Source: an uncultured Pseudomonadota bacterium
Lineage (GTDB): Bacteria > Babelota > Babeliae > Babelales > UBA12409
Direction: 5' to 3'
Assembly: GCA_964444435.1 (NCBI GenBank)
Contig: CAYUHH010000001.1
Location: 1-28,903, forward strand
DNA length: 28,903 nucleotides
This document shows positions 1 through 25,433 of the stretch, in pieces. A program made the translations under genes and the position numbers. The stretch's first letter is position 1, and the number at the start of each line of letters is the position of its first letter. Under the pieces are notes generated by a model that was not told where the DNA came from, did not search any database, and saw only the letters and a program-made list of their open reading frames with translations.

Positions 1-1949
1 ATTTCAATATCAACAATTTCAAGAATATCATCATTATCTGCATCATTTGCTTTAGTTTGGACTTGTCGTTTTGTTTTATTAGCGTTTGAAGCGTCTGTCC
101 CTGCGGTAGCTTCAAGAAAATCTTCGATGATAACATTAATATCGAGGTTAATAAGACCAAATTCATTAATTTGAGGTGTAATAGAGACTTGTAGTTTTGC
201 ATCAAATGTTGAGAAACCTTTGGCATCATTACCAATAATTTGACTTTCTGCTCGACGTGTTTCGCTAATTGCAACAGTAGAGGTGTATTTATTTGTTGCA
301 ACGATAAAAGGGTTTGCAAGGAGTCGAGATTGAGTGTCTGAGCTTAAAACACCGAGTATGGCATATACACTTTCTTTACCTAGCGTAAAAAGCGTTGTAC
401 CTGTGGTAGCAGTTTTAGCAAGGCCAATTAAGTTTCCGAGAAGCGTATTGCTATATTTTGCGGGTGTATTTGTTATGGTAGCTACTTGTGCGTCGCTACC
501 GAAAAAACCGGTCATTTGACCTTCAATTTTGGCAGGGTTTTTTGTTTGCCATTGAACGCCAAGTTGTCTGGTTCGATTCAAATCTAACTCAATAATCATG
601 ACTTCAATAGCAACCTGTTGCTGTCTCTTGTCAAGTTGATCAATAATTTTACTTAAATGAACCCAGTCTTCTTGATTTGATCTAATAAGGAGTCTGTTTC
701 CTTGTTCTTCTGGTTGGATGAAAATATCACCAAAATACTTAAGGCCACCAATAACCGCTCCAGATTCAGAAGCAGATGGGCCTTCTTTGTTGCCGCTACC
801 GCTTTTTTTGCCAAATTGAACGACGTTGTTAAGAATTTCAGCAATCTGTTTTGCAGGGGCATAATTGAGATCGTAAACGTGAACAGGGCGGTACATTTGT
901 TTAAGTTCAATATCAACATGACTTAATATGAATTGTTCGATTCTGCGAACGCCTTCGCTTGGGCCAACAAGTATTAATGAATTGGTGCGTGGTGAAGGGA
1001 TTAGTGTTACGTCTTTAGAAAAATAATATAAGCTTGATTCTTTTTTAGGCATCCATGGGGCGGAAGTATTTTCATCTTTATTTTGAAGTGATTTGACAAG
1101 AGCGGCAACTTCAGTTGTTTCTGCTTCTTTGAGATTAATAACTGATAAAATTTGGTTTTCAGAAGTTTTATCTAATTCTTTAATAATTCTTAAGAGAGAT
1201 ATGATATTATATGCAGCGTCCGTAATGATGATCGCGCGTAAAAGATTCATAGTGTCAAGTTGCGCATTTGCACTGGTAAGATTTTTCAAGATATTAGACA
1301 TCTGTTCTGGTGAACTATTTTCGAGGAAACATACGTATCTGATTCTTTGGTCACTTTCTGGAAGTATATCAAGAGACGTATTTATGTAAGTTGGGAGAGA
1401 CAATTTATTTGCGTTCTTTATCGTAGTAATACGATAAACTTGAGGGTCAGAGGTTGGCACAAGTGACCATCCTGCAAGTTCGAGAAACATTGTAAAAAAG
1501 TTCCAGGCTTTTTTACGAGAGAAAGGCACATTTGTTTTAAAAGAAATTTTTGAGTCATTCAGAGGTTTTGTTTGTGTCCCGGGAGTTTTTACAACATCAT
1601 CAGGAATGAAGGTTACGTTAAAAATTTGACTAATTTGGTCAACAATGTTTTGTAAACTTGCATTATTGAAGTTGAGTTCTACGTCTGGCTGAATTTCTTT
1701 CTTTAATTGACTTGTTTCATCGAAAGAAAGAGGCTCTTCTTTAATTTTATCTGACGTTTCTGAATTGGTTGGTTGCAGAGAGATATCTTTTTTAGGGGGA
1801 ACATTTTTTTGCGCTCGTTCTTTTTTTGATGCAAAAAAATTATTTATTTTTCCCGATCCCGATGTTTTAGCGTTTATTTGCTCTTGGTTCGAGAGTGTGC
1901 TGATGATTGATAGTATAAAAAATAATACTAAGATTAACTTTTTTTTCAT
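1..1949 (-). CDS. gspD: Type II secretion system secretin GspD (3'-truncated by window edge; absent from the ORF track because no stop codon is in the window)
   Basis: Hand translation from ATG at 1949 (overlapping the gspC TAA as TAATG) is open for 649 codons to the edge. It shows a signal peptide MKKKLILVLFFILSIISTLS, N0-like ELNFNNASLQNIVDQIS, N-domain PRTNSLILVG, and secretin motifs IDQLDKRQQQVAIEVMIIE, LGVQW, LLANPFIV and ITPQIN. Confidence 0.93.
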   Translation of the reverse strand, partial: MKKKLILVLFFILSIISTLSNQEQINAKTSGSGKINNFFASKKERAQKNVPPKKDISLQPTNSETSDKIKEEPLSFDETSQLKKEIQPDVELNFNNASLQNIVDQISQIFNVTFIPDDVVKTPGTQTKPLNDSKISFKTNVPFSRKKAWNFFTMFLELAGWSLVPTSDPQVYRITTIKNANKLSLPTYINTSLDILPESDQRIRYVCFLENSSPEQMSNILKNLTSANAQLDTMNLLRAIIITDAAYNIISLLRIIKELDKTSENQILSVINLKEAETTEVAALVKSLQNKDENTSAPWMPKKESSLYYFSKDVTLIPSPRTNSLILVGPSEGVRRIEQFILSHVDIELKQMYRPVHVYDLNYAPAKQIAEILNNVVQFGKKSGSGNKEGPSASESGAVIGGLKYFGDIFIQPEEQGNRLLIRSNQEDWVHLSKIIDQLDKRQQQVAIEVMIIELDLNRTRQLGVQWQTKNPAKIEGQMTGFFGSDAQVATITNTPAKYSNTLLGNLIGLAKTATTGTTLFTLGKESVYAILGVLSSDTQSRLLANPFIVATNKYTSTVAISETRRAESQIIGNDAKGFSTFDAKLQVSITPQINEFGLINLDINVIIEDFLEATAGTDASNANKTKRQVQTKANDADNDDILEIVDIE

Positions 1950-23525: not shown

Positions 23526-24089
23526 ATGGAATTGTTAAAGCAGTGGCCTTTTCTTGTATGGATTGATCTTGAAATGTCTGGACTTGCTATTCAGCATGAT
23601 AAGATTTTAGAAATTGCATGCATTATTACTGACTCAGATTTAAATGTAATTGCAGCGAAAGAGTCGATTATTATTTATCAAGAGACCGAGTTGTTGGAAG
23701 GTATGGATGAATGGAATACTCATCAACATGCGAAATCTGGTTTGATTGATTCAATTAAAAGGTCTTCCTATACCACTGCGCAGGCAGAACATGAAGTACT
23801 TGCGTTTGTTAAAGAATATTGTGAGCCTCAAACGGCGCCACTATGTGGAAATTCTATTTGGGTTGACCGGCTGTTTTTGAAGACATATATGCCTGTACTT
23901 GAGCAGTATTTGTATTATCGTACTATTGATGTAAGTACAATAAAGCAATTGGTAAATTTTTGGTATGGAAAACCTGATTCACAATTTTTTACAAAAAAAG
24001 ACATGCACAGAGCTCTCGATGATATTCGCGAGTCAATTGAAGAATTAAAATATTATCGTGAAAATTTCTTCATAAAAGTGAAGTTATAA
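23526..24089 (+). CDS. orn: Oligoribonuclease
   Basis: DEDDh motifs WIDLEMSGL, GNSIWVDR, YRTIDVST, HRALDDIRESIEEL. Confidence 0.95.
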   Translation: MELLKQWPFLVWIDLEMSGLAIQHDKILEIACIITDSDLNVIAAKESIIIYQETELLEGMDEWNTHQHAKSGLIDSIKRSSYTTAQAEHEVLAFVKEYCEPQTAPLCGNSIWVDRLFLKTYMPVLEQYLYYRTIDVSTIKQLVNFWYGKPDSQFFTKKDMHRALDDIRESIEELKYYRENFFIKVKL

Positions 24090-24607
24090 TGAAATATAAC
24101 TCTTTAAAATTATTTATCATGGGTCTGGCTTGCGTTTTTTCACTGAACTCTATTTTTGAAGAAAAGTTAGATATTAAGGATGATTTTAGATTGCGCCATT
24201 TACATGTGAGTGATTTTAAAAAGGGTATATGCGAATTGTTAGAGCAATTAACATTTATTGGGGCAGTAGGTACGTCACATTTTGAATCGTTTCGATTTAA
24301 ACTTACCAGGGATCATATAGTTCTTGTTATTGAAGATTTTGATCAACATAAAATTGTGGCAGCAGGGACTTTGTTTATTGAGCCCAAATTAATTCATACA
24401 GGTGGCCGTGTTGGTCATATTGAAGATGTTGTGACGGATGAGGCTATGAGAGGAAAAGGTTTTGGTAAATTAATTATTGCTCGTCTTGAGGCGTATGCCA
24501 ATGCGAGGGGATGTTATAAAACAATTTTAGATTGCAGTGAAAAAAACGTTTCTTTTTATAGAAGTTGTTCGTTTCGTCCTTGTGGTATTGAGATGGAAAA
24601 AAGATAG
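24089..24607 (+). CDS. GNAT acetyltransferase, glucosamine-6-phosphate N-acetyltransferase (GNA1-like), with a signal-peptide-like N-terminus
   Basis: EPKLIHTGGRVGHIEDVVTD..RGKGFGK and CYKTILDCSEKNVSFY match the GNA1 subfamily pattern. TAATG overlap with orn. Confidence 0.85.
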   Translation: MKYNSLKLFIMGLACVFSLNSIFEEKLDIKDDFRLRHLHVSDFKKGICELLEQLTFIGAVGTSHFESFRFKLTRDHIVLVIEDFDQHKIVAAGTLFIEPKLIHTGGRVGHIEDVVTDEAMRGKGFGKLIIARLEAYANARGCYKTILDCSEKNVSFYRSCSFRPCGIEMEKR

Positions 24608-24749: not shown

Positions 24750-25433
24750 ATGGAAATAAAAAAAATAGCTGATGTGTATAGTTATATTGATCATACGTTG
24801 GACGTTGTTTTTTTTGACATAGATAACACAATCTTAGAAACTGAAGCAGGTCCTAACCTTGTTAGTTGGGCAATAGCGTTAGAAAAGCATATTCGTTCTC
24901 ATCATCAGATGAAAAATCTTTCTGACCATGATTTTTTTATTTATGTGCAGCAGAAAATTGCTGATTTTATTGAGCATATGAAGCCTGCGTTGGTTGAGGA
25001 AGAAGTTTTAGGGGTTATTCATAGTTTAGAACAAAAAAATATTCCTATTATTGGGTTAACAAATAGGCCTTTAAGATCAGTTGAAGTAACTATTCAGCAG
25101 TTGCATCGATTTGGATTGGATTTTTCTTCACATCCGTTTGGGTTGCAGGAATATCATTTTGAAACACAAGATCGTCCGGCTCGATTCAAAAATGGTGTTA
25201 TTGTGGGTAATAGTAATAACAAGGGTTTTTTGATTCGTGAATTTTTGGAAAAAATTCAATTTCGTCCCAAAAAGCTACTTTTTGTTGATGATTCTGAGCA
25301 TTTTATCATTGATGTTGAAAATGTTTTTAAAGAATCTAAGACTGATGTTGTTGCGTTACGGTATGGATTTTTAGATAAGAAGGGCCAGGACTTTTATCTG
25401 ACAACAGAGATGATTCCCGAAGAGTTGCGTTGA
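24750..25433 (+). CDS. DUF2608-family HAD-like hydrolase
   Basis: HAD motifs FFDIDNTIL, IGLTNRP, K in NNKG, FVDDS; C-terminal VALRYGF. Confidence 0.8.
   Translation: MEIKKIADVYSYIDHTLDVVFFDIDNTILETEAGPNLVSWAIALEKHIRSHHQMKNLSDHDFFIYVQQKIADFIEHMKPALVEEEVLGVIHSLEQKNIPIIGLTNRPLRSVEVTIQQLHRFGLDFSSHPFGLQEYHFETQDRPARFKNGVIVGNSNNKGFLIREFLEKIQFRPKKLLFVDDSEHFIIDVENVFKESKTDVVALRYGFLDKKGQDFYLTTEMIPEELR

Follow-up and report, generated by a model that had tools for sequence, protein, structure and literature searches.

Why should a bacterium carry a glucosamine-6-phosphate N-acetyltransferase of the GNA1 type, and why should this enzyme stand behind what looks like a secretion signal? GNA1 is the textbook eukaryotic solution to the acetylation step of hexosamine synthesis and GlmU the textbook bacterial one. 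The question was raised by an open reading frame (ORF) of contig CAYUHH010000001.1, whose 28,903 nucleotides as a whole are called the window below. This contig belongs to a Dependentiae (TM6) metagenome-assembled genome (MAG) of 0.95 Mb in 176 contigs, 94.6% complete and designated G000, for which matching DNA was found in salt-lake and marine metagenomes, while no RNA data set was listed as a match. Relatives were coded G001, G002 and so on; those carrying the gene (G000, G002 and G006) belong to genera g1 and g5 of family f1. In this small sublineage, a GNA1 with a conserved leader was found together with a GlmU whose acetyltransferase core is deleted and, in the sister genomes, with a GlmS that also displays a leader. 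The best explanation, to which we give about an even chance, is a Sec-exported GlmS and GNA1 module that would make N-acetylglucosamine-6-phosphate (GlcNAc-6-P) in the periplasm or in the host cytosol for a parasite unable to N-acetylate.

The GNA1 identity proposed in the initial annotation was borne out by sequence and by fold. Phmmer searches of the PDB matched the ORF to GNA1 of Arabidopsis (3t90, 1e-30) and A. fumigatus (2vez, 2e-28), followed by the yeast, C. elegans, human and T. brucei enzymes (1e-19 to 1e-24), while the next non-GNA1 GNAT appeared at 3e-8; Pfam and NCBIfam assigned the ORF to generic GNAT only. An AlphaFold2 (AF2) model built with 66 homologues reached a mean predicted local distance difference test value (pLDDT) of 92.8. 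In a Foldseek search against the PDB, ranks 1-26 were all GNA1 and the first non-GNA1 structure appeared at rank 27, with a target-normalised template modelling score (TM-score) of up to 0.91, to Arabidopsis GNA1 3t90. All substrate-binding and catalytic residues were retained (Table 1). By alignment, E112, D113 and V114 correspond to Glu104, Asp105 and Val106 of the C. elegans enzyme (CeGNA1), where Glu and Asp, in the IED sequence of strand beta4, bind the 3-OH and 4-OH of the sugar and the backbone amides of Asp105 and Val106 bind the acetyl carbonyl (PMC3413214). Likewise, K144 (6-phosphate binding) and C149 (the family-wide active-site Cys) map to CeGNA1 Lys136 and Cys141 (roles in PMC3413214). 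From the alignment we infer that R172, the last residue of the protein, occupies the position of the phosphate-binding Arg. GNA1 is an obligate homodimer in which exchange of a beta-strand forms the active sites, and the sequence has the C-terminal strand as well as the residues that the partner subunit supplies.

These residues bear on a first rival explanation, namely that a GNAT of GNA1 fold has shifted to another amine, be it glucosamine-1-phosphate (GlcN-1-P), a different amino sugar, a host protein or some small molecule. Mimivirus L316 does accept GlcN-1-P, with a 5-fold lower preference (PMC9614988), leader-bearing GNATs of other types abound in the family, and the Dependentiae GNA1 clade sits on a long branch (0.55). 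Yet the protein keeps all residues that contact the sugar and its 6-phosphate in solved GNA1 complexes, and identity to bona fide GNA1 amounts to 40-48% over the whole domain; we consider a changed acceptor very improbable. In the preferred explanation, evenly balanced as a whole, the gene would encode an active GNA1 converting acetyl-coenzyme A (acetyl-CoA) and glucosamine-6-phosphate (GlcN-6-P) into GlcNAc-6-P.

Characterised GNA1 proteins are cytosolic and leaderless. Here, on the contrary, the domain is preceded by a hydrophobic leader of 21 residues, the N-terminus of the ORF reading MKYNSLKLFIMGLACVFSLNS, as already noticed in the initial annotation. Its uncharged stretch comprises 16 residues and the highest hydropathy over 9 residues is 2.77; the h-region has 12 residues and the c-region reads LNS. 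In the AF2 model, residues 5-21 formed a detached helix (pLDDT 66-79). A home-made heuristic recognized in it the attributes of a Sec-type signal peptidase I substrate, i.e. a tripartite n-h-c organization, an h-region within 7-15 residues, -3/-1 positions taken by small residues, and the lack of a lipobox. The four intact orthologues displayed leaders of 16-22 residues: the n-region is basic, the h-region has 9-13 uncharged residues, and small residues occupy -3/-1 (NAYA↓I in G006, TFS↓V in G002 and LNS↓I in the query, arrows marking the putative cut). In the four full-length leaders, the flank that follows is acidic or neutral, which results in a charge bias for an N-in/C-out orientation. 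The character of the leader was kept in five orthologues while its sequence drifted. Poor sequence conservation with maintained character is what is expected for signal peptides.

Other readings of this N-terminus were examined. The leader is not skipped through an internal ATG, as there is none between M11, which lies inside the h-region, and M120, and all five orthologues have an open, ATG-initiated leader; an alternative TTG start at L35 was without conserved support. One metagenomic sequence, P0004, looked like a leaderless orthologue, but it comes from a long-read contig ridden with frameshifts (also in orn and atpD) and remnants of the leader were found upstream in a shifted frame. A lipoprotein was rejected too, since no Cys is conserved at the lipobox position across orthologues. 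Among 414 GNA1 homologues, the heuristic flagged 23, five of them being the Dependentiae rows and 18 others. One flagged sequence, P0144 (L213:2188-2721, + strand, a Logan contig), is 50% identical to the query and has a leader of its own; its contig is bacterial, with ruvA, an ABC ATPase gene and murJ as neighbours, and GNA1 may be exported in this further bacterial lineage too.

Leaders of this kind are common in G000. Among its ORFs of at least 100 amino acids, 45-46% were flagged by the heuristic, versus 11-13% of internal or shuffled controls. This agrees with the 44% of coding sequences reported to have signal peptides in the cultured Dependentiae Chromulinavorax; its putative effectors carry them as well, and the Sec system together with a PulD-like channel was invoked (PMC6561590). 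Genes for two signal peptidases I and for no fewer than three secretins were found in G000. Further GNATs were recorded in the sister genomes (L201-L212 of G001, G002, G004, G005 and G006) and in G000 itself (L217:1447-2007, - strand, contig C11), and all but one (L210 of G001) displayed hydrophobic leaders or anchors. One of them, L212:496-1884 of G002, is a leader-bearing fusion of a DUF2608 (HAD) domain with a GNAT. A separate observation concerns an adenylate kinase of G004 (L178:68-808, + strand). With its GAPGTGKGT P-loop and an N-terminus that resembles a signal peptide (AWA↓HKE at its end), it is a further cofactor-dependent, supposedly cytosolic enzyme with the look of an exported one.

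This large secretome bears on a second rival explanation, in which the exported GNA1 would be an effector altering host processes that depend on UDP-N-acetylglucosamine (UDP-GlcNAc), such as chitin or cyst wall formation, glycosylation or O-GlcNAc modification. The conserved leader, the secretins, the signal peptides of Dependentiae effectors (PMC6561590) and the leader-bearing GNATs and adenylate kinase of the family are consistent with it, and giant viruses encode the same enzymes, which raise the GlcNAc supply of the host (PMC9614988). On the other hand, the sequence gives no link with chitin or encystment, and hosts already have GNA1, with the amidotransferase GFAT as the usual controlling step. 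An effector would also leave unexplained the coincidence with a crippled GlmU/GlmM route (see below). Such a role appears quite unlikely to us.

The distribution of the gene was narrow. A protein query found it in three of 41 relatives, and a profile search in three of 261 Dependentiae species genomes, the same family being concerned in both cases. Metagenomic sequences included, five Dependentiae orthologues were compared. Identity reached 48-74% within this clade and at most 48% outside it, where the best named matches were eukaryotic (a lycophyte, liverworts, Coemansia, Naegleria and Acrasis); homologues on giant-virus contigs were 43-48% identical to the query. The initial annotation had treated GNA1 as an enzyme of eukaryotes and giant viruses only. 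This was too narrow, because GNA1-like proteins were also recorded at 462 loci among prokaryote species genomes, overwhelmingly in Nitrososphaerota archaea, with a few scattered bacterial cases that include Entomospira and one MAG of the Fibrobacteraceae.

In a maximum-likelihood (ML) tree (91 rows, 147 columns, LG+C20), the five Dependentiae sequences were monophyletic (100/95) and lay inside a clade of 23 rows (95/86) that further contained 15 sequences of nucleocytoplasmic large DNA viruses (NCLDV), two unnamed ones and one spirochete. Archaea formed a separate clade (99/86). Its occurrence in three of 261 genomes and its place among NCLDV show that the gene does not belong to a bacterial clade of wide vertical inheritance. 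Sparse distribution, the syntenic site of G001 without the gene (see below) and the tree alike point to horizontal acquisition, as the initial annotation had proposed, and a transfer into the ancestor of genera g1 and g5 appears well supported. A giant-virus-like donor is our best, tentative estimate from the tree. However, an approximately unbiased (AU) test did not reject Dependentiae and archaea as one clade (p=0.105), and the G+C content of the gene is like that of the genome (34.1% versus 36.3%), with no compositional sign of recent transfer. Judged from the orthologues, the leader would clearly be under selection and would have been gained after the transfer, common though leaders are in G000. 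Two further architectures were met among the homologues: the giant-virus proteins L088, L089, L090 and L092 (IMG/VR) comprise about 620 amino acids, with an N-terminal AGM1-like phosphohexomutase and a C-terminal GNA1, and two GNA1 domains in tandem make up many metagenomic proteins (P0003, P0121-P0134).

The resident amino-sugar pathway provided the context in which the gene has to be read. The GlmU gene of G000 is partial, at a contig edge. In the f1 genomes G000, G001, G002, G004, G005 and G006, the GlmU model TIGR01173 was matched over positions 2-355 of 452, below the cut-off, whereas GlmU was full-length in 28 other Dependentiae. Alignment with full-length Dependentiae GlmU revealed an internal deletion of about 90 amino acids that takes the segment from KH-L-S/T-Y-I/L-GD through NYDG through AAGS and leaves the N-terminal uridyltransferase half and the C-terminal tail in place. 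Most likely the acetyltransferase activity has been lost, since established GlmU enzymology places the catalytic His, together with the site for acetyl-CoA, in the deleted segment. Similar shortened forms also occurred in G008, G011, G019 and G031, with less marked shortening in G022 and G039. GNA1 was found exclusively in genomes with a shortened GlmU (3/12, versus 0/28 with a full-length one).

The mutase step is affected as well. Most Dependentiae have a canonical GlmM (above 300 bits), and none was found in the f1 genomes. These retain a paralogue of the phosphoglucomutase/phosphomannomutase (PGM/PMM) type, scoring 165-197 bits and having PgmG and archaeal GlmM as best NCBIfam matches; in sister genomes this mutase displayed a 305-bit similarity to archaeal GlmM. 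MurA is present and UDP-GlcNAc is therefore needed. The genes glmS, glmM and glmU, which the initial annotation had proposed to look for, were recovered in part: a short GlmU and a Cys-less GlmS paralogue are there, and a canonical GlmM is not. With a GlmU deprived of its acetyltransferase core, no canonical GlmM and a MurA to be fed, we prefer a contribution to the parasite's own UDP-GlcNAc supply. Nothing was found in favour of the manipulation of host chitin or encystment suggested earlier.

A possible link with export came from GlmS. In G002 and G006, i.e. both other genomes with GNA1, the canonical GlmS displayed an n-h-c leader of 20-21 amino acids directly before CSIVGYIG, ending ...VSVKA↓CSIVGYIG and ...SAGALG↓CSIVGYIG, and residue 22 is where the match to the family model begins. 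A further 13 canonical GlmS of Dependentiae were examined; all start with M-C, also those of the GNA1-free f1 genomes G004 and G005, and the leader was found in none of them. GlmS needs a free N-terminal Cys, and for this reason the leader must be cut exactly before that residue; cleavage by signal peptidase after translocation would thereby create the N-terminal nucleophile of the enzyme. The co-occurrence of leader-bearing GlmS with GNA1 in both genomes makes export of GNA1 more likely. G000 also carries a GlmS paralogue (L004:1492-3345, + strand, corresponding to C8:8883-10736) that starts with MSSVVGYIG and has its catalytic Cys replaced by Ser. It has no leader, a stop codon lying 12 codons upstream of the start. 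This Cys-less form is also present in G001 (L240), G002 (L223) and G006; the G000 and G002 versions are 80% identical, and identity to the canonical copy is about 52%. It is probably glutaminase-dead and might act as an ammonia-dependent synthase or else as a GlcN-6-P deaminase.

Both the GlmU deletion and the GlmS leader weigh on a third rival explanation, a replacement that takes place in the cytoplasm. GNA1 would then stay inside, its N-terminus being inert or serving as a tether to the inner face of the membrane, and would stand in for the lost GlmU acetyltransferase in a route of eukaryotic style, going from GlmS to GNA1, a PGM-type mutase, the GlmU uridyltransferase and MurA. This agrees with the restriction of GNA1 to genomes with a deleted GlmU segment, with the cytoplasmic location of acetyl-CoA and of the GlcN-6-P made by GlmS, with the archaeal GlmM-like mutase of the sister genomes, and with the failure to find an importer of GlcNAc-6-P. 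It fits less well with the leaders themselves, whose charge bias predicts N-in/C-out and whose h-regions of 9-13 residues are short for a membrane anchor. Moreover, the only catalytically competent GlmS of G002 and G006 has a leader that must be cleaved exactly before Cys1 for activity, which would place GlcN-6-P synthesis outside, and G001, G004 and G005 manage with a short GlmU and no GNA1. A cytoplasmic replacement is, in our opinion, an unlikely alternative.

Returning to the exported module, we infer export, cleavage, site of action, product uptake and the functional link between these features to be as follows. An ancestor of the small Dependentiae sublineage would have acquired GNA1 from a giant-virus- or eukaryote-like gene pool and would then have fitted it with a cleavable Sec-type leader. 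Translation of GNA1 would begin with the ATG at 24089, downstream of orn in the same operon, reinitiation at TAATG being plausible. The protein would pass through SecYEG, and signal peptidase I would remove the leader near residues 19-21. The enzyme would then work either in the periplasm, on host metabolites diffusing in, or in the host cytosol after passage of the outer membrane. With an exported GlmS partner cut before its Cys, it would convert host fructose-6-phosphate, glutamine and acetyl-CoA into GlcNAc-6-P, and the bacterium would complete the route with the PGM-type mutase (known from sister genomes), the uridyltransferase half of GlmU and then MurA. An exported pathway would be needed because the GlmU acetyltransferase segment is lost and a canonical GlmM is absent. 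The wider formulation, in which the first two steps of hexosamine synthesis have moved outside the cytoplasm (exported GlmS plus a GNA1 of viral or eukaryotic derivation) and are outsourced in convergence with the giant-virus pair GFAT and GNA1, is put forward more tentatively and falls somewhat short of an even chance.

Several observations weigh against this explanation. As regards the leader, the heuristic also flags about 12% of control segments, and since nearly half of the G000 proteins have leaders, a leader is not distinctive by itself. As regards the site of action, acetyl-CoA is to our knowledge not available in a periplasm and is large for porins, and no outer-membrane route is tied to the GNA1 protein. 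As regards the pathway, tblastn with the G002 copy did not find the leader-bearing GlmS in G000 and matched the Cys-less paralogue only, although the former may lie in the unassembled 5% of this genome; the PGM-type paralogue, for which the G002 copy likewise served as tblastn query, was not found in the G000 assembly either (94.6% complete). Neither an importer of UhpC/GlpT type (TIGR00881) nor NagA (TIGR00221) was found in eight genomes of the family, leaving the uptake of the product unexplained. Finally, G001, G004 and G005 have a short GlmU without GNA1, G004 and G005 having an ordinary M-C GlmS, so that loss of the GlmU acetyltransferase does not strictly require GNA1. On the question of the donor, the AU result given above counts on the same side.

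The features discussed here are collected in Table 1. The lon-orn backbone was kept in relatives, and the gene order lon-orn-GNA1-DUF2608 was found in G002 and two metagenome contigs, whereas G006 displayed orn-DUF2608-GNA1. At the syntenic site of G001, a member of the same genus, orn is followed by a 42-bp gap and DUF2608, without GNA1. The initial annotation had described GNA1 as translationally coupled to orn. With one base common to stop and start codons, this is plausible in G000; it does not extend to orthologous loci, which have spacers of 1 nt (L182) or 26 nt (G002) or DUF2608 in between.

Table 1. Position and supporting evidence of the features discussed (window positions unless a locus is named)
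Feature	Position	Strand	Evidence or remarks
Leader, residues 1-21	24089..24151	+	n-region MKYNSLK, h-region LFIMGLACVFSL, c-region NS; acidic flank IFEEKLDIKDD
GNA1-type glucosamine-6-phosphate N-acetyltransferase ORF, 172 aa + stop	24089..24607	+	PDB sequence matches, AF2 model, fold search
GNAT catalytic domain, residues 33-172	24185..24604	+	pLDDT >95 (residues 33-171)
GHIEDV motif, G109-V114	24413..24430	+	H110, E112, D113 invariant in 66 homologues
GCYKTILDC motif, G141-C149	24509..24535	+	Y143, K144, L147, C149 invariant in 66 homologues
Y157, CoA-thiolate-stabilising Tyr	24557..24559	+	Invariant in 66 homologues; corresponds to ScGNA1 Tyr143, CeGNA1 Tyr149 (PMC3413214)
C-terminal M169-E-K-R172	24593..24604	+	M169 invariant, conserved active-site Met; spacing as CeGNA1 Met161, Arg164
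orn (oligoribonuclease)	23526..24089	+	NCBIfam NF003765 247 bits and Pfam RNase_T; gene upstream of GNA1 in operon
TAATG stop/start overlap orn/GNA1	24087..24091	+	orn TAA 24087-24089, GNA1 ATG 24089-24091, one base common
DUF2608 (HAD-superfamily) gene, without leader	24750..25433	+	Pfam PF11019 123 bits; downstream of GNA1
Secretin-family ORF at window start	3-1949	-	PF00263; one of four secretin matches in G000
Leader-bearing GlmS loci	L222:475-2379 (G002 C8); L224 (G006 C20:5200-5750)	- (L222)
Shortened GlmU loci	L001:53-913 (G000 C35), L195, L196, L197, L199, L200		Genera g1, g3, g4, g5

The downstream neighbour was considered as a dedicated partner of GNA1. This is unlikely, since DUF2608 adjoins orn in G001, where GNA1 is lacking, and belongs to a multi-copy family. 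Eight copies were counted in G000 (that of the window and others on C4, C13, C73, C84 and C103) and nine in G002; the family occurred in 30 of 41 Dependentiae versus none of 14 control genomes, and some paralogues have signal peptides (L171:1447-2202). A literature search on DUF2608 returned nothing.

The GNA1 enzyme family and sporadic bacterial GNA1-like proteins were already known. New in this study is a clade-restricted, leader-bearing GNA1 in Dependentiae that coincides with a deleted GlmU acetyltransferase core and with a leader-bearing GlmS; literature searches (Dependentiae with glucosamine; GNA1 with horizontal gene transfer and GlmU) yielded nothing relevant. An obligate intracellular bacterium appears to have swapped GlmU for GNA1, keeping GNA1 and, in sister genomes, GlmS behind export signals. 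If this is true, a parasite would secrete core metabolic enzymes that need cytosolic cofactors and would harvest host carbon for its cell wall, and signal-peptide cleavage would generate the nucleophile of an N-terminal-nucleophile (Ntn) amidotransferase. Dependentiae and giant viruses, whose protist hosts are of the same kinds, would also be tied together by a concrete case of gene sharing. The scheme offers a candidate, testable account of how peptidoglycan could be built by Dependentiae with a crippled GlmU/GlmM route.

Four known systems come closest to the protein from the window. Bacterial GlmU performs the same metabolic step with an unrelated fold, its acetyltransferase being a left-handed beta-helix that uses GlcN-1-P as acceptor. 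Eukaryotic GNA1/GNPNAT1 (EC 2.3.1.4; 3t90, 2vez/2vxk, 1i1d, 4ag7 and 2huz) displayed the same fold at 33-41% identity and have in common with the query the GHIEDV, GCYK-ILDC, FY and C-terminal M..R signatures. The query differs from them by its bacterial genome, its Sec-type leader, its operon position behind orn and the Arg as last residue. Nitrososphaerota (Thaumarchaeota) harbour the largest prokaryotic group of GNA1-like proteins, which have the same motifs and 36-45% identity; they are leaderless, vertically widespread and in a clade of their own (99/86), the sister relation remaining compatible with the AU test (p=0.105). Giant-virus GNA1 (Mimivirus L316 and metagenomic NCLDV proteins) were the nearest neighbours in the ML tree (95/86), at 43-48% identity. 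The viral proteins are leaderless and act without secretion in the host cytoplasm or viral factory. Mimivirus pairs the GFAT L619 with the GNA1 L316, adds the UAP R689 and has no mutase (PMC9614988); in the Dependentiae sublineage, too, GNA1 would be partnered with GFAT/GlmS in the absence of a dedicated mutase.

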